This document shows positions 2,478-30,359 of a stretch of 30,359 bases of DNA, in pieces. The notes below the pieces were generated by a model. It was not told where the DNA came from. It saw only the letters and a program-made list of their open reading frames with translations, and searched no databases. A program made the position numbers and the translations under genes. The DNA lies in the IMG/VR virus record IMGVR_UViG_3300025030_000335, positions 1-30,359 of that record. One strand, given 5' to 3'. This stretch comes from a virus. Taxonomy: Duplodnaviria > Caudoviricetes. The first letter of the stretch is position 1, and every line of letters starts with the position of its first letter.

Positions 2478-2914
2478 TGGCCCGTAAGCTCGACAGGACA
2501 CGGCCCTTTGGGGAGATTTACGGCGGTTCCGGCGATGCACGCTATGAGCAGCACGGCATTATGTTTGATGCTGCCGGCGATGAGTTGCCCGGTTATGACG
2601 ATGTGGAGATCCCGGAGCCCAAGGAAGTCGTCATTGTGCAGGGAGATGATACCGCTCTGCGGGCGGAGATTGCACGGCTGACTTCGCGCTTGGAAGCGGC
2701 ACTCACCCAGCTTGAAGATGCCGATGGTGAACTTGAGGGGGTCCAGGGCCAGCTTGACAGTGCCAATGTGGAAATAAGCCGGCTTAACGATGAAGTTGCC
2801 CGTTTGTCCGCTCTGGTTCCTGTTGACGGTGTGACTACCGTTGGTTCTGAGGAGGTCAGTCTGGACAGCCAGCTGGATCTGCAGACTGCAGGCATGACAG
2901 GTAAGAAGAAATGA
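2477..2914 (+). CDS. Hypothetical coiled-coil protein
   Basis: Translationally coupled on both sides; acidic heptad segment. Confidence 0.75.
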   Translation: MARKLDRTRPFGEIYGGSGDARYEQHGIMFDAAGDELPGYDDVEIPEPKEVVIVQGDDTALRAEIARLTSRLEAALTQLEDADGELEGVQGQLDSANVEISRLNDEVARLSALVPVDGVTTVGSEEVSLDSQLDLQTAGMTGKKK

Positions 2915-3462
2915 CAGAGGCGCCTGGAGGGGTTGACGTGGATGAGGTGAAGAGTCTTATTGCGGAGCAGAACCTGCGGGACATGCTGAATGTTGCCGGG
3001 CAGACCCCTGCCGGCGCCTTTATTGAGGTGGGGGTGTATCAGGGCGGCTCTGCGTACCTGTTGAGCCTGGTGGCCCAGGATCAGAGACGCCAGCTCCACC
3101 TGTTCGATACGTTCGAGGGGATGCCTGAAAGCAGCGAAGTGGATAAGCACCAGGTGGGAGATTTCTCCGATACCAGCCTGGAGCAGGTAAAGGCGATCAT
3201 TCCGGATGCGTTTTTTCATGTGGGCATGTTCCCTTATACGCTGCCGGTCAACCTGGGACGCATTGCCTTTGCCCATATCGATTGTGACCAGTATGAGAGC
3301 ATCAGGGCGGCGTGTCTGTTGTTGCCGAGCAGGATGGTGACCGGGGGTGTGATGTATTTTGATGATTATGGCTGTCTGGAAGGTGCGACGAAGGCGGTGG
3401 ATGAGTTTATGCCCCAGCGGATCGTGCTGCAAAACGGGAAGGCGATGGTGATCATACCATGA
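2911..3462 (+). CDS. TylF/MycF/NovP-family sugar O-methyltransferase
   Basis: Motifs 'GAFIEVGVYQGGS', 'LHLFDTFEGMP', 'FAHIDCDQYES', 'GGVMYFDDYGCLEGATKAVDEF'. Confidence 0.9.
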   Translation: MTEAPGGVDVDEVKSLIAEQNLRDMLNVAGQTPAGAFIEVGVYQGGSAYLLSLVAQDQRRQLHLFDTFEGMPESSEVDKHQVGDFSDTSLEQVKAIIPDAFFHVGMFPYTLPVNLGRIAFAHIDCDQYESIRAACLLLPSRMVTGGVMYFDDYGCLEGATKAVDEFMPQRIVLQNGKAMVIIP

Positions 3463-5033
3463 CCTGGAGCCTTGACACTTCGAACGGTTTTGAATCGCGC
3501 AAGATCAAGTATCTGCTGCCACGGTATACCCGGGGGCGGGTGCTGGAGATCGGCTGCGGGATGGAGAAGGCGTTTCCTCATTTTACCGGGTATGACTCCG
3601 GGCACCATTTTGGGCGTGGTGCTGCGGATGTGGTGGGCGATGCTGGTGATCTGTCGCTGTTTAGCGATGAATCCTTTGATGCGGTGTTTTCCAGCCATGT
3701 GCTGGAGCATATGGAGGATATGCAGGGTGCGATCAATGAGTGGTACCGGGTGATCAAGCCGGGCGGGTATCTCTGCCTGTATGTGCCGTCTGCGAATCTG
3801 TATCCCAAATGCGGGGAGCCGGGGGCTAATCCGGACCATAAGCATGATCTGTATCCTGGGGATATTGAAGTAATGATGTTCGATATTGCCCTGAAACTAC
3901 GCATTGGACAGGCTGGTGGATGGGATCAGGTGGAATGTGAGGAACGCGGAGAAGGAACAGAATATTCGCTGTTTGAGGTTTATAGGAAGCGAGATGATAC
4001 TCACGTTTTTACCCGGGATGAACTAACCAACTCCCAAAATAAAAAAACCGCCTGCGTCTGCCGCTTTGGCGGGTTTGGCGATATGTTGCAGGCTGCGGTG
4101 GTGTTTCCCCAGCTGAAGGCGGCCGGATACCATGTGACGGTGATGACGACTCCCAAGGGGAAGGATGTGATCTGCAATGATCCCCATGTGGATGATTGGT
4201 ACATTGTTGATCAGGATCAGGTGCCGAATGGGGAGTTGAGTGCGTTTTGGGCGGAGCAGGCGAAGCGGTTTACGAAGTTCGTCAACCTGAGTGAGTCGAT
4301 TGAGGGGCATTTGCTGGCGCTGCCGGGTCGCATGAACCATAGCTGGCCCCATGAAGTGCGCAAGAAGCGGTTGAATACGAATTATCACGAATGGACGGCG
4401 GAGCTGGCGGGAGTGCCGTTTAAGCCGTGTCAGTTGTTTTATCCGACTAAGGCGGAAACAAGCAAGTTTACCGGTCCCCAGTCCCCGGTCCCTGGTCCCG
4501 GTTTTACCGTGTTGTGGGCTTTAGCCGGTTCTTCGCTCCATAAGTTTACTCCCTGGCAAGATGCGGTGATTGCACGCATGCTGCTGGATATGCCGGAAGC
4601 CCGCATTATTATGGTGGGGGATCTGGCGTGTCAGATTCTGGAGCAGGGGTGGGAAGAAGAGCCGCGAGTGGTCTGTCTGTCGGATAAGTTGAACATCCGC
4701 GAGACGCTGGCGCTGGCGCAGCGGGTGGATCTGGTGATTGGGCCGGAGACCGGTGTGCTGAATGCGGTGGGCATGGATGTTACGCCACACAAGGTGCTGC
4801 TGCTGTCCCATTCGTCGGCCAACAATCTGGCGAAGCATTGGAAGAACTGCCAGGCGCTGACGCCGGTGGATTGTGATTGTTATCCCTGCCACCGTTTGCA
4901 TTACAGCGACGAATTCTGTCAGACCGATGACGAGACCGGTGCGGCGCTGTGCAGCGTCAAGATCGGTGCGGATGTGATCTATGGGGCGGTGGAGAAGGTG
5001 TATCGCAGTTGGAAGGCGGGGAGGTTGAAATGA
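3459..5033 (+). CDS. Class I SAM methyltransferase fused to a GT9 (heptosyltransferase-like) glycosyltransferase
   Basis: N-terminal 'VLEIGCG', 'FDAVFSSHVLEH', 'EWYRVIKPGG'. C-terminal 'RFGGFGDML', 'NDPHVD', 'DLVIGPETGVLNA' and a Cys cluster 'CDCYPC..C..C'. Confidence 0.88.
   Translation: MTWSLDTSNGFESRKIKYLLPRYTRGRVLEIGCGMEKAFPHFTGYDSGHHFGRGAADVVGDAGDLSLFSDESFDAVFSSHVLEHMEDMQGAINEWYRVIKPGGYLCLYVPSANLYPKCGEPGANPDHKHDLYPGDIEVMMFDIALKLRIGQAGGWDQVECEERGEGTEYSLFEVYRKRDDTHVFTRDELTNSQNKKTACVCRFGGFGDMLQAAVVFPQLKAAGYHVTVMTTPKGKDVICNDPHVDDWYIVDQDQVPNGELSAFWAEQAKRFTKFVNLSESIEGHLLALPGRMNHSWPHEVRKKRLNTNYHEWTAELAGVPFKPCQLFYPTKAETSKFTGPQSPVPGPGFTVLWALAGSSLHKFTPWQDAVIARMLLDMPEARIIMVGDLACQILEQGWEEEPRVVCLSDKLNIRETLALAQRVDLVIGPETGVLNAVGMDVTPHKVLLLSHSSANNLAKHWKNCQALTPVDCDCYPCHRLHYSDEFCQTDDETGAALCSVKIGADVIYGAVEKVYRSWKAGRLK
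4470..4501 (+). repeat. Heptanucleotide tandem repeat inside the CDS
   Basis: ACCGGTC CCCAGTC CCCGGTC CCTGGTC CCGG, encoding TGPQSPVPGPG. Confidence 0.75.
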
Positions 5034-16910: not shown

Positions 16911-17618
16911 ATGGCCGGGGTAATAGGTGCGGGACAAACACTGCAAAATTCAGCCTTTTCGGGGCTTTTGTCTGCCAGTCAGCTGGAACAGCAACGCGAG
17001 ATTGCCAACGGGAATCTGGAGGCGCAGGAAAAACAGGCATCCAAGGCCCGCACCGGGACGGCACTGGGTATTGCGGCATCGGCGGCAAAGCCGATTGCAG
17101 GGGCAATTGTGGGTGGCATGGCGCCGTCTGCTGCTTCGACGGCTGCGAGTACGATTGCCAGCCAGACGGCTGCGGCTTCGGCTAATACTGCGGCCGGTGT
17201 TGGTGCGAGTGGCGTCGGGACTATGGCGGCGCCTACGTCTATGGCGGCTAATGGTGCAGCTACGGGTTCAATGGCGGCAACGACCGGCGCAGCAACCACG
17301 GGAGCTGCGGCGACAGGTGCTGCGGGTGCTGCTGGAGCCGGCGCCACTGGAGCTGCCGGGGCGGGTGCTGCCGGTGGAGCTACGTCGCTTGCTGGTGCCG
17401 GGATGGCTACATCGGCACTGGGCACTACTGCAACGGCGTCTACCATTGGTGCGGCTTCCGGTGCAGCTGCAGGAGGGGCTGCTGCGGCAGGCGGCGGTGC
17501 TGCCGCTGGCGGGGCCATGGCCGGTGCCGGTGCTGCTTCGGTTGTGCCGGTTGTCGGCTGGGTGGCTGCTGCGGGGATGGCGATTTATTCACTCGGTTCG
17601 ATGTTTGATTGGTGGTAG
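16911..17618 (+). CDS. Gly/Ala-rich ejection (DNA transfer) protein with hydrophobic C-terminus
   Basis: AGGAGG SD. Low-complexity G/A/T region ending 'VVPVVGWVAAAGMAIYSLGSMFDWW'. Confidence 0.75.
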   Translation: MAGVIGAGQTLQNSAFSGLLSASQLEQQREIANGNLEAQEKQASKARTGTALGIAASAAKPIAGAIVGGMAPSAASTAASTIASQTAAASANTAAGVGASGVGTMAAPTSMAANGAATGSMAATTGAATTGAAATGAAGAAGAGATGAAGAGAAGGATSLAGAGMATSALGTTATASTIGAASGAAAGGAAAAGGGAAAGGAMAGAGAASVVPVVGWVAAAGMAIYSLGSMFDWW

Positions 17619-17628
17619 GGGGATAATC

Positions 17629-19254
17629 ATGGGCATGCGAGATGGTAATTGGGTGAAGGATGGGCTGGACAGCTATCTGGCGGTGACCGGTGAGCGACGT
17701 GCGGAACGGAAGGCGGATGCTGATCTGGAGCAGCAGCAGCATACCCGTGATCTGCAGGACAAGCAGATGGGTATGGCGGTGAAGTCTGCCGATCTATCCA
17801 ACCAGGTGCAGGAACTGGCCATTGGCGAGGGTAAGCGCAAGGTGGATGACCGCACGCGGTTTCAGTCTGAACTGCGGGATCGTATCACCATGATGACGGC
17901 TGCAGACCCTTCCATCCCTAATACGCTGGATGCAGCGCAGATGGCGGCGTCACGACAGGAGGCGAATGATTTGGCCACCACGGCAACCTTGTTGAATGAG
18001 ATGCCGGCGGGCGCTGCGGAGTTAAAGCTGGAAACTTTGCCGAAAGCCGCCCAGACGGTGCTGATGGAAGGGCCGGGCAAGGCGGCGCTGCGGCGCAAGG
18101 GTGCTGTTCACCGGGATCCATCGGGTGCGGAATATACGATTACGGGGCAGCTCGGACCGGTGCGGGTGGTCAAGGAGGAAGGCAAGCCGACGCTGGTGAT
18201 ACCGACCATGCTGGCGGCCCGGGGTGACGGGACCATGATCGAGGTGCCTTATACCGAAAACAAGAGCAATGATCCAAATGATCCGGTGAAGTACGTTACG
18301 CCGGAGATGCTGATGAACCGTGCCGGGCTGCAATTTGCTTCACTGGATCAGGCGGAGAAGAACGGGATTTCGCCGGCCGTGGCAAAGGCTGAAAACATCT
18401 ATCGCATGGTGTTGACGCTCCCCTATGAGGAACAGGTTGCCTGGATGAAGGCGGAGATAAGCAGGGAGGTAGGGCGTCGGGATAAGTATGTTTCTAATGC
18501 GGAGTTGGCTGCGGCGGCAAAGCCGTTTGAGGAGAAGCTGGGGGCACTGAAAGGGACTCCCGAGGAAAAGCGCACAGCTGCTGCGGCGCTCACGGTGGGT
18601 GCGCCGCCCGAGGTAGTGGATCATCTGTTGAAAACGTCCAAAGTTTTTCACGATATGTTTCCGGATGTGAAGAGTACCAAAACCAAGATTGAAGAGGGTG
18701 CAGGCGCCGGGCAGGTTCGTGAGGTGCTGGTGGATGACAAGGGCGCCCGGGTGTTTGAAGGTAAGCCGTATGCCAAGCATGCGCCGAAGAGTGGCGGAGG
18801 CGACTCCACTAAGCTGGACACTCAGACACAGAAGGATATGTACCAGAATATCAAACAGCGCCAGGCGGATTATGACAAACGCCGTGCGGAATTCAATGAG
18901 GCAATTTCTACGGAAGCCGATGAAGATAAGCCTGGTAACAAGCGGCTGGGGCAGATACTGGAACAGGATCGTCTGGCTATTCGTGAAAGCATGAGGATGT
19001 ATAACAAAAATTACGGTCAGGCGTTTGCCTTACAAGATGGTGGGGGGATGCGCCAGACGCCGGCTCCTGCTGGTGGGGTAATGCGTCAGGCACCGGCAGC
19101 AGCACCGGCGGCGGCACGAACAGCCCCGGCGCAGGTTGCCCAGCGTGGCACGGGCGCTGTTATGCCTCCTGCGGGGTACAAGCCCACGGGTAAGACTATT
19201 CAGGGTAAGCCGGCGTATGTTTCGGCTGATGGTAAGAAGGTTTGGACGCCGTAA
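17629..19254 (+). CDS. Putative ejection / internal virion protein (541 aa)
   Basis: GGGGGA SD before ATG 17629. The longer ORF-track start only overlaps the previous gene. Helical and charged. Confidence 0.7.
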   Translation: MGMRDGNWVKDGLDSYLAVTGERRAERKADADLEQQQHTRDLQDKQMGMAVKSADLSNQVQELAIGEGKRKVDDRTRFQSELRDRITMMTAADPSIPNTLDAAQMAASRQEANDLATTATLLNEMPAGAAELKLETLPKAAQTVLMEGPGKAALRRKGAVHRDPSGAEYTITGQLGPVRVVKEEGKPTLVIPTMLAARGDGTMIEVPYTENKSNDPNDPVKYVTPEMLMNRAGLQFASLDQAEKNGISPAVAKAENIYRMVLTLPYEEQVAWMKAEISREVGRRDKYVSNAELAAAAKPFEEKLGALKGTPEEKRTAAAALTVGAPPEVVDHLLKTSKVFHDMFPDVKSTKTKIEEGAGAGQVREVLVDDKGARVFEGKPYAKHAPKSGGGDSTKLDTQTQKDMYQNIKQRQADYDKRRAEFNEAISTEADEDKPGNKRLGQILEQDRLAIRESMRMYNKNYGQAFALQDGGGMRQTPAPAGGVMRQAPAAAPAAARTAPAQVAQRGTGAVMPPAGYKPTGKTIQGKPAYVSADGKKVWTP

Positions 19255-19276
19255 CGGTTATTTTCGGAGAGGCTCA

Positions 19277-19738
19277 ATGACAGTAACTACATGGGCAACA
19301 CCACAACCATTTTTCGACATGCTAAATGAAGAGTTTAATTTCACTCTGGATGTGGCGGCACTTCCCGGTACAGCGAAATGCCCCAAGTTTTTCACCCCGG
19401 AAATTGATGGGCTTCAGCAGGATTGGTCGAACGATACATTTTTCATGAACCCCCCATATGGTAGAGGTCAGGATGTTTATTCGTGGGTTAAAAAGGCTCA
19501 CGATACGGCATTGGCAGGTGGCACTGGAGTTTGTTTGCTGCCAGTTTCAGGCGACACAAAGTGGTTTCACGACTTCTGTATGAAAGCCAGTGAAATTCGG
19601 TTTATCAAAGATCGGCTCTGGTTCACCCTGGATGGCCAGGCCGCACGAGCGAATCACGCATCAATGGTGGTGGTGTTCCGTCCGGTCCCGGGAGCCGCCC
19701 CCAAACTATCCACTATGCCAAATTGCAGGAGAAGATAG
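19277..19738 (+). CDS. dam: Phage DNA N6-adenine methyltransferase (Dam, PF05869-type)
   Basis: GGAG SD before ATG 19277. Motifs 'WATPQ.FFD.L..EFNFTLDVAA', 'DGL.QDW', 'FMNPPYGR', 'DTKWFH', 'EIRFIK.RL.F'. Confidence 0.9.
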   Translation: MTVTTWATPQPFFDMLNEEFNFTLDVAALPGTAKCPKFFTPEIDGLQQDWSNDTFFMNPPYGRGQDVYSWVKKAHDTALAGGTGVCLLPVSGDTKWFHDFCMKASEIRFIKDRLWFTLDGQAARANHASMVVVFRPVPGAAPKLSTMPNCRRR

Positions 19739-19782
19739 CAACCTGATTTGACTCAGCACTACCATAACAAGGGAAAACCTCC

Positions 19783-22700
19783 ATGCCTATATTCGATTCC
19801 AGCAAGATAGCTTTTGATAATGACCAGCAACCTGGCGGCGGATCTTTCCACGATGCCGCCGCTGTTGCGTTTGATGGTGCTGATACGCGGCTGTTTTCCA
19901 AGCCGGTCCCGGCGGCGGGTGGGATGAAGCAGGTGCTGGGTATTGCCTCCGAGTCGGACAAGGCGGCCCGGTCCGAAGCTGACTATCTATTCAAGCCGGA
20001 TACGCTGCGGAAAACCTTTGTGCCTGTTCCGGCGCTGGCTGTTTCTCAGGTGGTGCAGGGTGTGGGGGGCAAGGTCCGTCAGGTGGGTGATGTGGTTGGG
20101 TCTGAAGGTATGGCGACCTGGGGTGATGAGTTTGCCGAAATGGGCGCCGGGGTTGAAAAGACCATTCAGGAAGCTGAACCTTTGGAACAAGGATCATGGG
20201 CTAACTCCATACGTGGTGGTGCTACCAGCATGTATCAGCAGTTGCCATCAATGGTGGCGGGCGGTCCTTTGGTCAAGGCGGGTATGAAGGCTGCCGGCCT
20301 GGCGACGTCTCTCCTCCCCATGGGTGCTGTAACCGGTGGGCAATCCTATCAAAAGCTGCGGGAACGCGGTTTTGATGTGGGTGCAGCTTCTGCCGGCAGT
20401 GCGGTGGATGAGCTGATCGAGGTGGGTACCGAGCTGCTGCCGATGAATACGGCGATGAGTTTTGCGACCAGTAAGGCCAAGTTTGGTTTGAAGCAGTTGG
20501 CGGCAACGGCGATCAAATATAATGCCGGTGAGTATTTTGGCGAGGCGCTGGCGGCCATGGGCCAGGGTGTTAACGATAAGTATTTGTCTGATCCGAAACT
20601 GACGCCGGAACAGCGGCAACAGAAGGTGGATGATTATTTTAGCGTGGTCAATCCACAAACCGGCAATACGGCGGCCTGGGATGATTTCACGGAGGCCATG
20701 CGGGCAACGACGGCGCAGAACGTGATGATGATGGGGCTGGGTGGCGCTGCCAATCGGGTTTCCCGCTCGTCTCAATCATCGGGTATGGCGCCGGAGCCTC
20801 CTGCTTCTGTTGCAGGTGCTCCCCAGGATGGTCAGGCCGTGCCGGTGCTGCATGAGTCCTTTGATGATATCGAAGATATGCCCGCTCCATCCGGTCCGTT
20901 GCAAAGGGCGGCTGGACAGGCGCCGGTGGTTGCGGCTACCCCTGTTGTGCCTGCTGCCTCCCCGGCACCGGCTGTTGATGCTCCTCCTGTTGTGGCTGCT
21001 GTTGGTGATGTTTCCGGCCGGGTAGCGACCAAGGAGGATGTTGACGAGCTACCCCAGGCCCGTGAATGGGCGGCACGGCAGATGGATGGCGGCAATAAGA
21101 GTCTCTGGCTGCAGGATGGCGAGTCGCAACGGGATTATTCGTGGCGGATTCTGGATCCCTACCGTGAGATGAATAAGCCGCGAAGTTTTGAGGATTCGGC
21201 GGTTGCTGTTGCTGAACCTTCTGAGCTGGATCGGGCTGTTCAGCACAATCAGGAGTTATGGCAATCGGGCCAGCGTGGCCTGATGCAGAATACCGGCACA
21301 AGCCCTGCCCAGTTTGAGAGCAGCTTGTTGCGACAGTACCGTGTTGCGATGGAGAAACAGAATGGCGCTAACGATCAAGTGCCCGCACTGCGAGGGGCGG
21401 CCGAAATGGATGGGCAGGGAATGGCAGTGCCCGAAGTGCAAGGCCCGGCTATCGGAGCAGGAAGTGATAATACTCAACCCGAAGGAGGAGGATTAACTAA
21501 TGGTCTGTCTGCACTAACTGATCAAGCCGGCAGTGCGCCTAACCCCAAGGAAGGTCAGGCCGTTGTTTCTAAGGAAGGTTTTAACGGTGACGTGGCTATA
21601 CCCAAAACAGGCAGCAATAGCCTTGAGGGAAAGGCCGCTGCGAATTTTAGAGACAACCTCGTCGAGAACAAGGGGCTGGTGGTTGCGGGTGGTGTCGGCA
21701 AACTTGGGGAGTCCTCTGACGCTGTTAAGAGTGAGCCCCTTTTTGCGAAAAGCTCCAGCCAAAGTGTTAACAGAGACGCCCAATTGGTTGGCGACATCCT
21801 TGGTCGAGACACCTTCAACAAGCAAGGATTTCGCAGTCTCGATGCTAAAACTCAATTGGGTGTGGTATCCGCCATGAGCAGACTTGTTCATGACCCTCAA
21901 ATTCTCGACTCTGTTATCAAGCTTGTCCCCGTTAATATGGTGGACGTCCTCGCTTCTCGTCAGCTTACGCCCAAGATGCTTTTCCATGACCCATCGATGC
22001 TCAAAGATGCTCTTTCCGGCAACAGTAACTCGCCTGTATCCATAGATAGTGAGACAGCCGATTCTCTGGTGAGAGGCACGGCAGCTATTGCTGCAAAACA
22101 CTTTCCCGGACTTGGAGACTTTCAATTGGGCGGGGGTCCGGTTGAGGATGGTTCCACATTCAGTGCAATAACAGATCATAACTTAACCCCTGAAGATATA
22201 ATTGCCCCTAATATACATGCAAAAGCTGGTGTAAATCAACCTAAAGAAGGGGTGTTAGATAAGGATATCACCAATAAGGACGCTCCCAAGGTTATCGCCA
22301 TTACCAGTCCCAAGCCCCCGGCCACCAGTCCCCGCCGTCTGGATTCTTCCACGGATAGCCTGATTGTGGCGGTGGCCAAATTGGGTGGGATCAGCCGTGA
22401 TCAGATTGATAAGCAGATGGGGAACGGCAAGGAGCTGGCCCGCACGCTGAATACTTTGGCCGGGAAAGAGGCTAAGACGTTTCTGCATGTGATCAGCACC
22501 AAGGGAATGCCCTTGGACCGGATGCGCGAGGCGCTGGTGGAACAGGGATACCTGAAGGAAGGTTCCAGCGTCAATGATCTGCTGGATCGTCTGGATGCTG
22601 CACAGCGTGGCACGTCCAGTTATTCCACGGCCAACAGTGGGGCGGCTGCCGACAAGGCTTATGATGCGGAGCTGGAACGTCTGCAGGATATGATGGAGGA

Positions 22701-25700
22701 TATGACCGAGGCGGAGCTGGCCGAGTTCACCCGCAATCAGTGGCTGGAAGAGCAGGCCGGGCTGCTGGCGGAAGCGTCGGATCTGCTGGATGAATACCTG
22801 GATGGGCTGAATCAGGAGGATATGACGGCTGCCGATTGGCAGGCGGTGGAAAACGACCTTAAGGAGGCATTGGATGCAACCGAGTTCAGAACCGAAGGCG
22901 ACAGTACAGCGGATCAAGGAAAAGTGTCAGAAGATGCCACCGGCGCAGAGGAAGGTGTTTCTGCAGTCGGTGAAGGCGATGGTGACGGCGAAGGTAAGGC
23001 AGAGGTTGGAGGCGGCAAAGGCCGGGACCAGGGACCGGGGACCGGTAAGGACGGCAAACAGTTAAGTGAAGGAACTGGCACCAAGACGACGACAGACACT
23101 CTTGACGTTGCCGGTGCGAATGACACAGCTAGCCGCACCACCAGCCCTTCTCTTGATGATACTGAACCGCTTTCGAAGAACGCCGGGCCCAGCGTCTTAT
23201 CTGGTGAAAACCAGACCCCCTTAATCCCTGGGGCTAAAACGGCTCTTGATGATTCTAGTATTGCCCATGACGGTAAAAATGTCAAACAGGAAACACCGGC
23301 AGCGAGGTTTGAGGCAGGGGGCACAATCGTTCCTGATCTGATAGGCGAGAAGATAGGCGGGGCACGTAAAGATCTTGCCACCAGTACCGGCACAGTTGCC
23401 AAGAAGAAACCGAAGTCGGATCTTCCCGCCTGGAAGCGGCGATATGTGGTGATGGAGGATGTAAAAACAGGGCAGAGCCGCATTGTCGATACCACCACGA
23501 ACAGAAACCTTATCAGAAGATTGTTTACCACGGCAGAAGAGGCGGAAGAAGCATTGCCGCTGGCCGTGGTTGCACTTAAGCACAAGGTGCGCATGGACAC
23601 CGGGGGCACGTACAAGATAACCCGCGAGGTGACAGAGCGGAAGCGTGTGACCATTAAGGACGGGTTCCCTACCGAGGAAGCCGCCATGAAATACATGGTT
23701 CAACATGCAGAAGAGATCATAGAGCAGAGTACATACTTTGGCGCCGAGATCCTTGCGCGGCCGGAAAAGGTTGTCAGGAGTGGTGCAGAGCGCCGGAGCG
23801 GCAATGCCACCGGTCAAGCATTCATGGACGCTTTCGGTTTCAGGTCCGCAGAGTTCGGGAACTGGAACAATGCAGAAGAACGGCAAGAGATTTTGAACCA
23901 TGCCTATGATGGCCTGGTGGACCTTGCTGAAGTCCTCAACATCCCTCCCAAGGCGCTCAGTCTCAACGGTGAGCTTGCCATTGCCTTTGGTGCGCGTGGC
24001 CAGGGTCTGTCAGGAGCAGCCGCACATTACGAACCTGCGTATGCTGTCATCAATCTCACTAAAATGAGCGGCGCCGGGAATCTTGCCCATGAATGGTTTC
24101 ATGCGGTAGATAATTATCTTTCCCGTCAGGATGGTTCCGCTAAGTCGGAAAAGGTGAAAAACAAGCGTGGTGACATGGTGTACCCTGCGACCGGCAAAGA
24201 TATGGCCAGCCTGGGGTTTTCTACTAGAGGTTCAGGTGTGCGCGAAGAGGTGAGAGACGCGTTCAAGAGCCTGCTGGAGTCCATGTTTTACAAGGCCGAG
24301 CAATACGTCGAGGACACGGAAAAGGCCGAGAAGTTTGTTGGGAGCGCACTGCGTAATGTCGAAAGCAGGTTGGCAGATATTCGCCGGCACATTGCCCGTG
24401 ACCGTGAATATGGGGCAAAGAAAAAGGCCGCAACCGCAGAACAGCTTGCACGTTTTGATGAACTGGCAGCCAAGTTGGCCAGTACGCAAAGCGAACCGAT
24501 AGAGTGGAAAATGGGCATTGGTGTGAAGGAAGGGGCCAAGGCAAAAGACCGGGGAGCATTCGGGCAGTCCCGGTGGACAAACGACACAATCGAGAGCATC
24601 AGCACGATAATGAAAGAGGTCACAGGAAGGAGCGGTTTCAGTAAGGAGGGTAAAGATACCCTCAATTACCTGGCCAGCGTTGTGCGCGATCTTCAACGGC
24701 GGCATTCCATGCTGGAGGGGGCCAGAAATCAGGATGTAAAGACCAAGAAGATACCCACCAGCTACCGGCAAGAGGCGTACAAGATTGATCAGGGGCGGAC
24801 CAGTGATTACTGGACCAAAGAAGAGGAAATGGCAGCACGTGCATTTTCTGCCTACATCGAGGACAAGATAGGCGCAGAGGGCAATACCAGTGATTTTCTG
24901 TCATTCGGTTCGGACAACAAGTATTACCGGCTCTACAACATCATGCCATTCCCTGAAGGGAAAGAGCGTGAAGCGATCAACAAACAGTTTGACAACTTCT
25001 TTTCCACCCTGAAAACCAAGGAGACGGACAAGGGTGTGGCCATGTTTTCCCTCGCCCAGTCGGACAAACCCTCAATCCTGCCGGATGTGGAATTCGATGC
25101 GGTCCTTGATCGGATCACCGGTGGGCGGGTTAAAGACACGCACGCTTTCGTGGTGGCTCGCACGGGTTTTGATCTTCCGGCGCCGATACTGGCAGTACTT
25201 AAAAAGCAGGGCACCCGCCCCAATCAGGTAGATGGCGTATTCCATAATGGCAAGGTGTATCTCATCCGCGAGAACATTGCAAGCAAGGAACGTCTGGAGG
25301 AGCTGCTGTTTCATGAATGGCACGGCCATGCCGGCTTGTATGCGATGTTTGATAATGATGGCAAGCGGCTTTGGGATGGCATGCTGAAATTATACCATAC
25401 CATTACCCCTGCGGTGCTGAACAAGGTGGGCGCCAAGTACGGCATTAACCTGATGCGCTACAGCCATGGCATGGCGAAGGCCGGGTATTCGACGGATGAA
25501 ATCCGGGTGGTGCTGATGGAGGAGATGCTGGCGCACCTGACCAATGAATACAGCCGGGGGGATATTGCCACCAAGATCAGGGAGATGATTGGAAAGATCC
25601 GGGCCTGGCTGCGTGACAATGGTTATGCTTCTCTGGCTTCATGGGGTGAGACGGATATCGCCTTTCTGTTGAAACGTGCCCGGATCTATGCGGAGTCGGG

Positions 25701-28700
25701 TGTTTGGGCCAAGAATAGTGACACAACGGTTATCCCCAGTGGTGCCGAGATCCTGAAGGTGCTGCGTGAAAAGGGGATCAGTGATGAGATGCTGCAGAAG
25801 CTGCTGAACGCTTCTCCGAAGTTTATGACGGCATGGCATGGTTCGCCACACGACCACAACAAATTCAGTAACGATCATATCGGGACAGGTGAAGGGGCGC
25901 AGGTGTATGGGTATGGGTTGTATTTTGCGGGAAATCGGGAAGTGGCGGAATTTTATCGTTCCAAGTTAACGGGTGGAGACAAGTTTTCATCAATCACTAT
26001 AAATGGAGAACCTGCCGGATATTACAGTAAAGACCTTGTGGCAACAAAAGCTATTAATGCAATCATTGACAATAATGGTGATGTTGATGCCGCATTGAAA
26101 AACCTGCTGGAGAGAGTAAAGGAATCGCCATTTAAATCTCTGCGCAATAACGCCGAAGCGGCAGTAAAGTTTATACGGCAGAACAAAATTGAAGTTGGCA
26201 AAAAAGGTAAGCTGTATCAGGTGGAACTCGCGCCGTCTGAGGATGAGTATCTGTTGTGGGATAAGCCTTTGTCAGAACAAAGTGAGAAGGTTCGTGAGGT
26301 GTTGGAAACGGTTATGCCATTGTCTGATGCCGGGATTCGTGAATGGTATATCAATTACGAGATCAACAATCCTAACGCATGGGAGTTACATCGGGAATAT
26401 TATGAAGACGCTCCTGCGTTTGATGCTCCGAACACAGTTAAACGATCATGGCTGGAAGAAAGCAAAGCAGATTGGATAAGTGAAGCGGTTTCTGATTATA
26501 AACAGATGCATGGTGATGACCGCAAATCTTCCGGGCGGGAGTTTTATTTTCGTCAGAGTTCATTAAAGGGTTCTGACAAAGCCGCTTCCGAATACCTTCA
26601 CTCCCTCGGTATCCGTGGCATCAAGTATCTTGACGGCAACAGCCGCAACAGATCAATCAAGGATATCAAAAAAGCCTTCCTTGCTGAATTGGAAGAGGAT
26701 GCCGGGTTTGATGATGTAATGGAGCTGGTGGGTACCGGCAAGTTCAGTGCAGAGCAAGAGGCGGTACTGAAGGCACTTGAATCTGATGATTGGCTTGGTT
26801 TTGATTATCCCGCCCAGGCTATCAGTGCCGCACTTGGTAATAACCTGAGTGATTTCGACCCAAGTTCAAAGCTGGTTGATGCGGTGGCCCAGCTTGCCAA
26901 GGATCAGCAGTTTAACTATGTGATTTTCAATGACGAGGATGTGAGTATTCAGGCGAAGTTTTCCATCCGCGAGGATCAGCCTTCCGTTACAGAAACAGAG
27001 GCTTTCAAGAAGTGGTTTGGAAAGAGTAAGGTGGTGGACGATCAGGGTAAGCCGCTGGTGGTTTATCATGGGACGAGAGCGGATATCAAAGTTTTCAATA
27101 TGGGGGACGAGGGAGGAACCTTTTTTACTACATCACCTGAAAATGCCAGTGAATATGCCGGGGGATGGGGAGAAATCGGCCAAACTGAAGGTGGCAATGT
27201 CATGCCAGTGTACCTCTCAATCAAGAACCCTTATGTGGTTACAGTTAAGCAATGGAATATGGCTGAAGGTCTAGATCCCGAAGATGCAAAGGCTGAAGGT
27301 TATGACGGGTATGTTATTGAGGAGCAAGAGGGTGGTGATACATGGATTGCATTTGAGCCAAGCCAGATCAAGTCCGCTACCGGCAACAACGGCGACTTCG
27401 ACGGCAACAATCCTGACATCCGCTTTTCCATCCGTGAGGATACACAAAAGGTTTCCACGGTTTCGACGGTGGATAAGATCAAGCAGTTCCTCAATCCCCT
27501 GGATTATTCCCGCTTCAAGGATTCGGCTGTTGATCATCTGCCCAATGATGCCACCATGTGGCTGGCGGATAATATCGGCAATCCTTATTGGGTGAAGGAA
27601 AACAACCCGGCAGCGGCGCCCTTTTATGAAGAGGCCAAGGACCGGGAAGTTACCAAGCTGGATAACAATATCCGCATGTTTGGCGGGCTGGTGGATAATG
27701 ACGGCAAGCGCACGGCCTGGGACAAGATCAAGGATCTGGGGCAGTGGAGCGAGCATACGACCGCCTGGGGCAAACTGCGCAAGGAGAAGTATGACAAGCT
27801 GACCGACAAGCAGAAGGCTGCCTATACTATGCTCCGCTTTGAGGGTGACGCGTACAACAAGACCTATGAAACCCTGTCCAATGCCCTGCGCAATCCGCGT
27901 ATCAAGAAGGCCGGTGTGGATGCGGCGGTGTTTGACTTCTACCGTGAGGCGCTGGCGGCTGAGGAAGCTTCGTTTGAGGAAAAGCTGCAGATTGCTGCGG
28001 AGAATATGGCCGAGGCGGGCATTGATCCGGAGAAGATCAAGGGGCATATTGCCGAGTATCGTGCCCGCTATGCCGACCTAAAAGGCTGGGTGCATCGGGA
28101 CCATGGCGAGGGTGATCATGTGGTACAGGTCTACCATACCATTGACCGCCTTGATTTTGTTATGGATGAGGTGCAGCACAAGGGTGCGGCTTCCGACCGG
28201 ATCCGGTTGGCGTATTCTCCGGGGGTGGAGATTTCCCGGGCGATCGAGAAGATTACCAGCGAGTTGGGCGGGACATTCAAGCAGTTGAGGGATGGCGGCA
28301 TGGTGATCCTGCTGCAAAAGGGGCAAGGCGAGTTTGCCCGGGAACGTTTCGACCGGCTGAAGCTGACCAACAAAGATGGCAAGCACAAGTATCAGGTGCT
28401 GGTGTACACCCGTTTCGTGGCCAATGCTGCCCAGGCCCGCAAACTGGCGGCCGAGGTGAAGGCGAATCCATCTGCGGCTATGCCGCGTAACTATTACGAG
28501 GGGCACAGCTATGCTACCTCCTGGAATTTCTCCAATAAGCTGCAGGAGGCGGATTTTCAGGAGCTGCGCACCAGTGACATGAAGATGGAGCTGGTGTTGA
28601 GTCAGGCGGTTAACAAGGCTGCCTCCAAGGAAGGGCTGGATGAGTCGGCGGTTAAGGCAATCCAAGAGGCACTGGTGCAGAATGTGGCGGAGGCGCTGTT

Positions 28701-30342
28701 GGGGCGTGGCGCCGGTCTGTACCAGATTCGCCGGGCCAACCATCTGATTGAGGGATACGACCAAACCGACGCGGTCAAGAAATATGAGGATTACGTTAAT
28801 AGCACGGCCGGGATGTTCAGTAAGGCCCGCTATGCCCTGCGGCAGTTCCACAATATGAAGAACGTGGCGCCCAAGCTGCGTAACTGGGCTACGCGCTATT
28901 TTGCCGACAGCCTGCGCAATATGGGCGCCGGTGATCGTTTGTCCGGGAATGTCCGTGCGGTGGTGTCGCTCTGGTATCTGGGATTCAATGCCAGCTGGAT
29001 GCTGGTCAACTCTACCCAGCCGCTGGTATTGGGTCAGGCGGAGTTGTCCCGCTACACGGAATCACCGTTCCTGAAGATTGCCAAGGCGGAGAAGGATCTG
29101 TTGACCGGCAACCTGACCGAAGAGGAAAAGGGAATTCTGCAGGAGCATGCCACCATCACCCAGGACCGGGACAGCATGATGGCAGAAATGACCGGTGCGC
29201 TGGACGGTGTGGGGGGCAAGGCCAGCAAGGCGCTGCATGGTGCTGTTCAGGTTGCCATGGCGCTGGGGCAGAAGGTGGAGGTGCTGAACCGGCATACGAT
29301 GATTATTGCGGCGTATCGGGTGATGCGCGAGAAAAATATGGACCGGGCGGAGGCATACCGGAAAGCGCTGGAGATCAACAGCGCCGTTAATATCGATATG
29401 GGGCGTTACAACCTGCCCCGCTGGGCACGCGGGCCGGTGGGACGCACCTTTTATTCGCTGCAATCCTATATCCAGCACATGCTGAATTACCTGTACCATC
29501 GCAGCAGCAGCGGCAACCGTGCCGATCAGAAAGCGGTGTTGCGCCTGCTGTTCGCCATGTTCCTGTTGGGCGGTGCGCCGGTGGGTGCGCCCGGTAGTGA
29601 TGAGCTGGATAAACTGATTCAGCGGCTGTTTGGATATTCTCCCAAGCTGGCCCTGAAAGGGTGGACCCGCAAGTTTGCCCAGGAGTACGCCAGCGCCGGA
29701 GAAATGCTGGAAGGTTTTGTGTGGCACGGTATCCCGGGTGCGTTCAAACCTTTTGGGGTGGGTGTGTCTCTGACCGGAGCGACCCAGCTGCGGATCCCGA
29801 TCATCTCCAACATGATTGCCGGGGATGATATGACCAGGAGCCTGACCGGCCCAGTGGGCGGTTTGGTGCAGAAGGGGGTGATGGCCGGCAAGGCGCTGCA
29901 GCGTGGTGATGCAACCAGGGCGGTGGAGTATCTGGCACCGACGGTGGTTGGCAATATGATGAGCGCTGTGCGGCAATCAACCGATGGGGTTAAGACCGGT
30001 CATGGCAAGCGGGTTGATTACAAGGGTAAACCACTGAAGATGGAGCCGCAAGAGGCGGTGTTGCGGGCAGTGGGGCTGCAGCCGGTGCGCACGGCGGATA
30101 TTTCGGAGACACGCGGTAAGCAGTTTGATCTGTCCCGCGAATGGCGTGAACGGCGCCAGGATGCGCTGGATAACTATCGCAACAGCCGCAAGCTGAAGTA
30201 TGTGGCCGAGTTCAACCGCGAGCTGAAGGCAAGCCAGGCAGCCGGCATTATCAATCCGATCACGGCGGATTCGATGAAGCAGGTGTGGGGCAAGCCGGAC
30301 AAGAAGAAGGCGGCATGGGAAAAACGCTATGGTGTGGAGTAA
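19783..30342 (+). CDS. Giant polyvalent virion/ejection protein (3519 aa)
   Basis: LPD5-like '[12 protein letters not shown]' (~23341). LPD1-like 'FGFR.AEFGNW...AFGARG...HYEP...LAHEWFHA' (~23820-25050). Zincin 'HEWHGH..EEMLA' (25312). ART-like 'WHGSPH...GTGEGAQ.YG.GLYFA' (~25830). ART-PolyVal-like '[20 protein letters not shown]...PVYL...QIKSA..NNG.FD' (~26990-27430). Helical PLxRFG-protein-type C-terminus. Confidence 0.9.
21362..21496 (+). CDS. Nested +1-frame zinc-ribbon mini-protein (44 aa)
   Basis: [30 protein letters not shown]...; GGAG SD 7 nt before the ATG; two CPxC knuckles. Confidence 0.65.
   Translation: MALTIKCPHCEGRPKWMGREWQCPKCKARLSEQEVIILNPKEED
21514..22179 (-). CDS. HNH homing-type endonuclease nested antisense in the giant ORF
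   Basis: Zn finger 'CTECG...FCSNSC', HNH core '[14 protein letters not shown]...[16 protein letters not shown]...H...H', two C-terminal HTH-like repeats. AGGGG SD 7 nt before the ATG. Confidence 0.92.
22209..22238 (-). promoter_or_regulatory. Candidate sigma70 promoter for the nested HNH gene
   Basis: Minus strand TTGATT-18nt-TATATT in an AT-rich patch just upstream of the SD; coordinates approximate. Confidence 0.45.
22303..22333 (+). repeat. Degenerate heptamer repeat
   Basis: ACCAGTC CCAAGCC CCCGGCC ACCAGTC CCC. Confidence 0.55.
22874..23065 (+). CDS. Nested +1-frame basic helical mini-protein (63 aa)
   Basis: Perfect AAGGAGG (22861-22867) 6 nt before the ATG; amphipathic '[29 protein letters not shown]'. 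Confidence 0.55.
   Translation: MQPSSEPKATVQRIKEKCQKMPPAQRKVFLQSVKAMVTAKVRQRLEAAKAGTRDRGPVRTANS
23022..23046 (-). repeat. Heptamer repeat, inverted copy of the 4470 array
   Basis: Reverse complement ACCGGTC CCCGGTC CCTGGTC CCGG equals the 4470 array minus one unit. Confidence 0.75.
23068..23253 (-). ncRNA. Candidate antisense structured RNA with two tandem multi-stem domains
   Basis: Domain 1 (23164-23245): 10-bp closing stem with three hairpins. Domain 2 (23068-23150): ~12-bp closing stem with inner hairpins. Each unit opens with ATCATCAAGAG. Confidence 0.6.
23257..23285 (-). promoter_or_regulatory. Antisense sigma70 promoter inside the giant ORF
   Basis: Minus strand TTGACA (23285-23280), 17 nt, AATACT (23262-23257). 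Confidence 0.65.
26959..27441 (+). repeat. 18-bp direct repeats flanking the ART-PolyVal-like domain
   Basis: TTTTCCATCCGCGAGGAT (26959-26976) and TTTTCCATCCGTGAGGAT (27424-27441); both encode FSIRED and lie 465 bp apart. Confidence 0.75.
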
Positions 30343-30359
30343 TTGTTGAAGTTTTTGTA

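Follow-up and report, generated by a model that had tools for sequence, protein, structure and literature searches.

Candidate antisense RNAs on the coding tails of PBECR nuclease domains, with an apparently orphaned pair inside a giant phage gene

What is a structured antisense RNA doing inside a giant phage gene, in company with further genes read in other frames? The locus that raises this question lies in IMG/VR record IMGVR_UViG_3300025030_000335 (Duplodnaviria; Caudoviricetes), analysed here as a stretch of 30,359 nucleotides (nt) that we call the window. An initial annotation described two convergent pairs of overprinted elements within the giant gene, each a small +1-frame open reading frame (ORF) facing an antisense element: a zinc-ribbon ORF with an HNH gene, and an ORF of 63 amino acids (aa) with an RNA. 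These elements are all real and the 3519-aa frame does stay open across them; the promoter-like site and the folded RNA of the second pair also stand, with the correction that the RNA has two modules, not one. What had been missed is the origin of this RNA at the tails of PBECR nuclease domains. PBECR domains are predicted, probably injected, virion-delivered RNases found in up to 26% of polyvalent proteins, and polyvalent proteins with PBECR and MuF-C domains belong to the same protein class as the giant protein of the window (PMC5512222, main text). The features needed here are as follows.

19783..30342, plus strand: giant polyvalent protein gene, 3519 aa in one open frame, with LPD5, LPD1 and ART-PolyVal domains

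23285-23257, minus strand: sigma-70-type promoter-like site, TTGACA-17-AATACT, which reads SI-x6-VK in the giant frame

23163..23250, minus strand: RNA module 1, a four-way junction of about 86 nt, from the tail of a second PBECR-like subfamily

23072..23147, minus strand: RNA module 2, a three-way junction of 76 nt (stem P1 of 7 bp; P2 of 7 bp with a 13-nt loop; P3 of 8 bp with a 13-nt loop), of the PBECR1-tail family

The evidence is strongest for module 2. The PBECR1 domain was followed through the databases to 23 phage records and 80 viral loci, with 22 distinct tails. An alignment of 22 sequences (A7) comprised the window, locus L190, 13 loci chosen through the protein and 7 found with a loop motif; L210, L258 and L259 were kept out of it for reasons of length or anchoring and were later matched by the model. 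The core of the alignment is gapless and forms a three-way junction, with double changes at 21 of 24 predicted pairs. Its covariation term is -8.43 on the antisense strand against -4.47 on the sense strand, which scores worse because G-U pairs turn into A-C there, and paired cells reach 94%, against 67% when shuffled and 40-54% when slid. The two loops meet in a 3-4-bp helix, which is not an H-type pseudoknot and holds one strongly covarying pair (G-C in 11 sequences, U-A in 10, other in 1). Upstream of the stem, a -10 box is present in 21 of the 22 members, compared with 1, 4 and 2 at control offsets. The family normally overlaps the 30-50 codons that follow the PBECR1 domain, and synonymous codons in this tail are fixed among 16 protein-selected loci (GAC in 14/15, GCT in 14/15, ACA in 9/14); as they are fixed in the loop, the constraint acts on nucleotides. 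Members lie on PBECR RNase coding tails in phages that include BPP-1 and Itty13, and of 23 PBECR1 loci held out, the model recovers 15. These comparisons give good support to the family as a conserved structure that is specific to one strand. Weighing against it, the aligned sequences are related and 7 of the 22 were chosen by their loop motif, of 21 distinct PBECR1 tails only 4 have a strict two-box promoter (0-1 in controls), and 8 of the 23 held-out loci have no model match.

Copies also occur away from nucleases. A 15-nt loop motif gave 79 matches, 7 on PBECR1 tails, one an orphan with promoter and stem, and 71 chance-like; orphan L286 has a near-consensus promoter and no nuclease. Model matches in 151 genomes number 9, and the 7 strong ones fall on intact PBECR1 (3), on a deleted-nuclease remnant (1) and at sites with no PBECR within 1.5 kb (3). 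L369, L370 and L376 (genomes G010 and G122) are module-2 copies that lie in no long frame and more than 1.5 kb from any PBECR domain, two of them 1.1 kb apart in one genome. Rfam returned no match on the RNA in 18 family loci, and no tRNA or tmRNA match. A full-text literature search, subscription journals and supplements aside, yielded no paper on antisense RNAs at PBECR tails; the preprint bioRxiv 10.64898/2026.08.28.747851 uses the term PBECR, and the word antisense does not occur in the part of its text available to us. The PBECR-tail RNA family was thus found in neither Rfam nor the literature searched and appears to be new.

In the window, 10 promoter-like sites were counted in 19500-30359 (10.8 kb), a number close to the chance expectation of 6.6 +/- 3.1; the best of them is that at 23285-23257, whose SI-x6-VK register is the one seen behind other PBECR, MuF-C and LPD3 domains. 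By itself the 196-nt antisense RNA folds moderately (z -2.1), and its support is comparative. A blastn search over 239 genomes gave two strong matches, one for each half of the RNA: L167 matches 23151-23069 at 81%, on the tail of a PBECR1 domain with its own TTGACT-17-GATAAT site, and L166 matches 23235-23167 at 88%, on the strand opposite the end of a domain that bears a GLxHIExRH motif, has no Pfam match and, by our own reading of its sequence, is PBECR-like. Module 1 folds at z -3.1 antisense and -0.7 sense, and its closing stem overlaps the PLSK codons, which are all that the giant peptide retains where nuclease-bearing loci read PLWE. Set against module 1 is its one close homolog, which has 9 differences and breaks 1 of 20 pairs (p 0.11, not significant), and this module is less well supported than module 2. 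The two modules share their first 11 letters, at a spacing of 93 nt (31 codons), and are otherwise unlike; leaders related to this 11-letter start are present in other family members. No match was found by blastn of the window RNA against phages and plasmids. A search of viral contigs for two copies of the 9-nt repeat gave 120 loci, and among the matches listed none looked related. Rfam had no match at gathering score in the window and chance-level matches only in 22800-23400.

A six-frame search of the window with two home-made PBECR profiles found nothing, and on this sequence evidence its two RNAs are orphans without a PBECR nuclease. A caveat to this reading is that the giant protein also occurs on contigs of 57 and 72 kb, from which it follows that the window is partial (30 kb of at least 57 kb) and that a cognate nuclease could lie elsewhere in the phage.

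Similar elements lie behind other nuclease-like domains. In the polyvalent genes scanned, an antisense two-box promoter-like site stands 10-70 codons behind 8 of 9 PBECR, MuF-C and LPD3 domains, compared with 3 of 39 other domains (p 4e-6); we assume that LPD3 is BECR-like, and without it the count is 6 of 7. The RNA-associated domains match PBECR1, PBECR2, MuF_C and LPD3, some of them below the Pfam cut-off. A fold with z < -2 was seen in nine of 15 other nuclease-type tails, in 3 of 39 background windows and in 0 of 15 controls taken inside domains. Two points count against this evidence, namely that the 8-of-9 test used a span set once the data were known and counts one locus to which the RNA itself had led, and that in 4 of the 15 tails the sense strand folds equally well or better. 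The type of folded antisense tail element differs from one nuclease-like family to the next, and many of these elements end in a U-rich run (L152, L153, L158 and L161 for MuF-C; L155 and L164 for LPD3; L155 for PBECR2), and further loci have such elements as well (L165, L191, L193-L195, L200, L363-L366). These probably represent several further RNA families. At L003 (~2870-3030), L007 (~4830-4990) and L218 (~1930-1950), a TATCTTTG box marks the end of tails behind PBECR-like domains; it presumably fits the Bacteroidetes promoter consensus, and this suggests that promoter type at PBECR-like tails tracks the host.

What might these RNAs do? We consider it somewhat probable, from sequence comparison, that they are binding antitoxins of virion-delivered PBECR RNases, acting in a type III-like manner, and that retained orphans protect against rival phages. 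What makes a type III-like mechanism the most plausible is the combination of an RNase domain and a cognate RNA with a tertiary fold and invariant loop letters. The RNAs would have sigma-70-type promoters of their own, read by host RNA polymerase whether or not the late giant transcript is made; such separate promoters could supply RNA before that transcript or apart from it. The folded RNA would then bind and block its cognate RNase, the producing cell and the lysogen would be protected, and an injected RNase would be switched off once RNA had accumulated. Nuclease, RNA and promoter may move between polyvalent genes as one in-frame cassette. The window probably once held two tandem cassettes and lost both nuclease bodies, leaving a two-unit RNA under one promoter; given the same 11-letter starts 31 codons apart, and the related leaders elsewhere, we infer this deletion to be the simplest history. 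Such a two-unit orphan RNA would confer immunity to rival phages that inject these RNases. More tentatively, and with somewhat less than even confidence, we propose that BECR RNases form an undescribed toxin-antitoxin (TA) class, in which each domain encodes a folded RNA antidote and its promoter backwards in its last 30-50 codons, and in which phages drop the nucleases and keep RNA arrays as immunity. On the other side of the balance, transcription, binding, nuclease activity and toxicity are so far predictions, PBECR activity itself included, and the MuF-C domain of Mu has been called inactive (PMC5512222, main text).

The window itself bears on a different account, in which the family is real and these two copies are decaying, functionless relics of lost cassettes. 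This is compatible with any mechanism for the family, and we regard it as possible, if doubtful. Beyond the missing PBECR, it draws on module 2, which weighs here against a working RNA: a -10 remnant (TATCAT, 23161-23156) is left and the -35 box is lost, the folding energy is unremarkable (z -0.6), as fits decay, and the window is the single sequence of the 22 that breaks the loop-loop pair. The closest relative, P0122, has other sequence here. Arguing for retained function, all 22 secondary-structure pairs of module 2 form, the model scores it at 86 bits (it was in the training set), and the promoter-like site that the modules share is the best in 10.8 kb.

For the family as a whole, the RNAs could instead be type I-like cis-antisense silencers, which would pair with the giant mRNA and damp leaky nuclease expression, with the fold merely stabilising them. 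Like a cis-antisense RNA, each is exactly complementary to the tail of the nuclease mRNA and has its own promoter-like site, and sequence and shape differ between nuclease families. We nevertheless judge this unlikely: complementarity in cis is automatic, yet the loop letters are fixed across distant phages; the geometry is gapless with a covarying tertiary pair; the target lies deep in the ORF, far from the ribosome-binding site; and antisense RNAs tolerate sequence change (PMC5737381, in the part consulted).

Nor is it probable that the RNA, rather than being an inhibitor, is an active product or cofactor, either as a decoy of tRNA size that engages host anticodon nucleases or as the RNA component of a PBECR ribonucleoprotein. 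Its 76 nt, 7-bp closing stem with a stacked arm and loop-loop contact invite the comparison, a fold that we take to resemble the tRNA elbow, and orphans with intact promoter-like sites persist. Inactive MuF-C has been proposed to bind RNA (PMC5512222, main text), and MuF-C tails carry such elements as well. Opposed to this are the lack of a CCA end and of any tRNA or tmRNA match in Rfam, and each RNA type follows one nuclease subfamily, as cognate inhibitors do. That the fold acts in single-stranded DNA as a recombination signal for domain shuffling between polyvalent genes would suit elements at cassette borders in highly mosaic genes, and is very improbable, since in 21 of 22 members a -10 box lies at the distance expected for a transcription start and many closing stems are followed by U-rich runs (read by eye), both of which point to a transcript. 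Binding antitoxins remain our preferred reading.

How, then, do the other overprinted elements relate to the RNA? The giant gene would carry three passenger layers, namely two +1 genes, a backwards-inserted HNH gene and the two antisense RNA modules.

21362..21496, plus strand: ORF-A, zinc-ribbon gene (CxxC...CxxC) of 44 aa in the +1 frame, Shine-Dalgarno (SD) sequence GGAG, kept in L001, L131, L132 and L135

21500..21517, plus strand: ORF-B remnant, five codons of a +1 mini-gene that is interrupted by the left junction of the HNH cassette

22179-21514, minus strand: HNH endonuclease gene of 221 aa, with a zinc finger, HNH_3 (Pfam, E 4.6e-12) and two helix-turn-helix motifs, SD AGGGG

22239-22210, minus strand: promoter-like site of the HNH cassette, TTGATT-18-TATATT, with an SD (cassette upstream part 22180..22239); a consensus match only

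22333..22881, plus strand: conserved domain of the giant frame, aa ~851-1033, no Pfam family, C-terminal half acidic

22874..23065, plus strand: ORF-C, basic peptide gene of 63 aa in the +1 frame, SD AAGGAGG, kept in L001, L131, L132, L135 and L136

The initial annotation was right that each element has its own SD (GGAG, AGGGG and AAGGAGG) or promoter, here promoter-like sites for the HNH gene and the RNA, and that the elements go unannotated, as holds in the records checked.

Both +1 genes have a start, an SD and purifying selection in the nested frame. The conserved start of ORF-A is ATG at 21362, not TTG at 21314, and each conserved +1 gene in relatives is preceded by a purine-rich SD. Among relatives, amino-acid identity over ORF-A is 65% for the nested peptide and 50% for that of the giant frame. 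Substitutions that leave the nested peptide alone unchanged are commoner than those that leave the giant-frame peptide alone unchanged in all five pairs tested, three for ORF-A (10:0, 9:2 and 18:6) and two for ORF-C (11:5 and 18:7); these pairs share sequences, and possible changes lean the opposite way, towards giant-silent. Over ORF-A the third position of the giant codon is least variable (0.21) and the first most variable (0.37), the opposite of the neighbouring aa 851-1033 domain, a control in which the third position is most variable (0.56). Judged from these substitutions, selection on ORF-A and ORF-C acts in the nested frame, the giant-frame peptide over them is a shadow, and the genes are old, as relatives hold them without the antisense elements. 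Across the giant gene, only 4 alternative-frame ORFs of at least 40 codons have an ATG and an SD, and 3 of these are ORF-A, ORF-C and the HNH gene. ORF-A was not found in L136, and neither ORF-A nor ORF-C in the distant L133 and L134; an Atlas search led from ORF-A to generic zinc-ribbon clusters only and from ORF-C to nothing usable. L131, L132 and L135 have a third +1 mini-gene, ORF-B, after ORF-A; in L131 and L135 it is a 24-aa CxxC...CxxC ORF. L131 (4772-4921) and L135 (4775-4924) hold an extra 49-aa +1 ORF with ATG and SD upstream of ORF-A that is not in the window.

ORF-C is 46-54 aa long in relatives, the window copy being lengthened by a short repeat at ~23010-23049. This G-rich repeat (23010-23049), inside the giant frame, has many copies in L001, L136 and other contigs of the same run. 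The peptide between the pairs had been taken as linker-like; it is instead the conserved aa ~851-1033 domain, about 60% identical among relatives, whose last codons double as the SD of ORF-C. AlphaFold renders the domain all-helical at low confidence (predicted local distance difference test 58.6), too poor for a fold search. Because basic ORF-C directly follows this acidic domain in all six loci, binding between the two is plausible.

The HNH gene is codon-aligned and antisense to the giant frame. Its 23 Leu codons include no TTA or CTA and its 19 Ser codons no TCA, and by avoiding these, the only codons that would stop the giant frame, it leaves that frame open. The gene is absent at this site from L001, L131, L132, L135 and L136 and from 5 of the 6 relative proteins listed (one DNA relative is the same record as a protein). 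P0122, the closest relative (79-83% identical), matches the window up to NGLS and continues with an InPase-type domain. P0123 has an HNH shadow at about the same site, and in prophage G090 an HNH homolog lies antisense in a 3840-aa frame on the opposite side of the aa 851-1033 domain. On a contig of run X2, at depth 587, the 1407 letters between the flanks are replaced by 972 different ones, and the locus resembles an empty HNH allele; this deep, HNH-less contig was not found in viral contigs. In the window, the insertion truncated ORF-B at the left junction. We found no intron match (Rfam, window) or intein match (Pfam, giant protein), and an intron- or intein-borne endonuclease was set aside, neither database supporting a splicing element.

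A word-index search for the giant-frame shadow peptide of HNH returned only the window's own protein, and a full HMMER search matched 286 protein clusters. Among the best 150 of these, 132 have a length of 900 aa or more and 96 of 2000 aa or more. At six positions all 150 carry the residues opposite the catalytic His, Asp and Asn that antisense codons permit and no others, V/M opposite H80, H81 and H102 and V/I opposite D88, N89 and N93. Of 21 shadow-bearing proteins scanned, 10 have polyvalent-type Pfam domains, 1 has WGR and 10 have none. P0144, P0145, P0143 and others have two HNH-shadow matches in one giant protein, which suggests repeated invasion of a single giant gene. By its sequence, the HNH gene is a codon-aligned, frame-sparing insertion, and its HNH_3 motif with intact His and Asn, together with patchy presence at homologous sites, makes spread by homing likely.

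These findings bear on the claim of two functional pairs, in which an antisense element would regulate the +1 ORF that it faces or serve as its partner. The 3' ends are indeed close, although they do not abut, with gaps of 17 nt (ORF-A/HNH) and 6 nt (ORF-C/RNA), and P0123 has its shadow at about the same place; the idea is nonetheless largely refuted and most improbable, since L001, L131, L132 and L135 keep both +1 genes with neither antisense element at the sites, HNH and RNA occur elsewhere without these +1 genes, and HNH cut ORF-B. The antisense elements probably abut the +1 genes because this was the nearest DNA not already coding in two frames. The suggestion that a disordered linker serves as a landing pad survives in part: the giant frame does read through the elements, whereas the order of events is partly reversed, much of the linker having been created by the nested elements. 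Alignment of homologues, proposed as a check, did reveal a mosaic of indels in this region.

The window is the structural module of a podophage-like genome, with major head, adaptor, internal virion, tail-fibre and Dam genes upstream of the giant gene. The giant protein combines several LPD/ART-type domains in a single large protein adjoining virion genes, as polyvalent proteins do: LPD5 (aa 1224-1350, below the Pfam cut-off), LPD1 (1669-1746) and ART-PolyVal (2419-2539). Contigs of 3 runs cover 22800-23500 without a difference and one contig spans 19700-25000 likewise, in runs that are possibly the window's own source; a metagenome scan returned only the window's own contig, and tblastn of the region and ORF-A against phages gave no match. 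The host is probably of the Geobacteraceae/Pelobacter/Desulfuromonadales group, because the closest named relatives sit in assemblies of Geobacteraceae, Pelobacter and Desulfuromonadales. Long antisense frames at 22255-22917, 22914-23696 and 23221-23901 were set aside, having no family match. Same-strand ORFs at 16911-17618 and 16927-19254 overlap by 700 nt, the 235-aa one with a weak match to phrog_594 at its start (PHROG, E 3e-4). A TylF-like gene and a second methyltransferase gene lie among the head genes (2911-5033), with the Dam gene (19136-19738) directly before the giant gene. Within the giant gene, GC content drops to 41-45% at 25800-26600, which suggests another recent acquisition. 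In L001 (3952-7350) the relative's giant gene stops after 1132 aa, the polyprotein being split or shortened there.

A cognate RNA hidden in the nuclease tail would offer a possible answer to how the producing cell escapes harm from PBECR. The section that defines PBECR names no antitoxin or RNA partner and none that protects the producing cell, and the words antisense and overlapping are absent from the main text, supplements aside (PMC5512222). The cultured phages BPP-1 (bbp10), Itty13 and Atu_ph08 would allow a direct test of the PBECR-tail RNA. RNA screens restricted to intergenic DNA would miss the family. Some conserved stretches of giant phage proteins appear to be shadows of genes in other frames or strands (286 clusters for the HNH shadow alone), and such shadow peptides matter for domain databases and for fold prediction of giant phage proteins.

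Compared with known systems, the nested +1 genes and the antisense HNH gene are variants of known arrangements. In lambda, Rz1 is a small +1-frame gene with its own SD nested in the larger same-strand gene Rz, and ORF-A and ORF-C are likewise small, same-strand +1 genes with their own SD. They differ in that ORF-A encodes a zinc ribbon and ORF-C a basic helical peptide, and in that the host-frame peptide over them is poorly constrained. The HNH gene recalls phage ShiLan, in which a homing-type HNH is hidden in another frame of an insertion in the DNA methylase, with the host frame open and no detectable splicing (PMC11855218, in the part consulted). Here too the host frame stays open across an out-of-frame HNH. 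In ShiLan the HNH is described as out-of-frame, and neither antisense nor reverse strand appears in the text seen, whereas in the window the HNH gene runs codon-aligned on the other strand and has a promoter-like site of its own, and HNH genes of this kind sit in giant virion genes across hundreds of clusters; by analogy, it is the opposite-strand counterpart of the ShiLan insertion.

For the RNAs, the nearest comparison is with type III TA systems (ToxIN, CptIN and AbiQ), in which an endoribonuclease stands beside a short, tertiary-folded non-coding RNA (PMC5086642, in the part consulted). The likeness lies in an endoribonuclease domain beside a short folded RNA, with inhibition by binding proposed. 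The layout differs. Type III loci are bicistronic, with the antitoxin upstream on the same strand under one promoter, whereas the RNA considered here lies opposite the nuclease tail, behind a promoter-like site that converges on the nuclease gene; tandem repeats and a Rho-independent terminator are replaced by a single-copy RNA per nuclease, with no upstream repeats and no inter-gene terminator; and in place of ToxN, CptN or TenpN the nuclease is a BECR-fold domain of a virion polyprotein. As these layout tests failed, the PBECR-tail RNAs are not classed as type III members. For the orphans, a parallel is found in phage PhiTE, whose pseudo-ToxI is an antitoxin-like RNA mimic (PMC3475682, in the part consulted). 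Like the window, PhiTE retains an antitoxin-like RNA without a toxin; pseudo-ToxI, however, is a repeat mimic of a host antitoxin, while the RNAs of the window would derive from the phages' own nuclease cassettes and lie nested in a coding frame.

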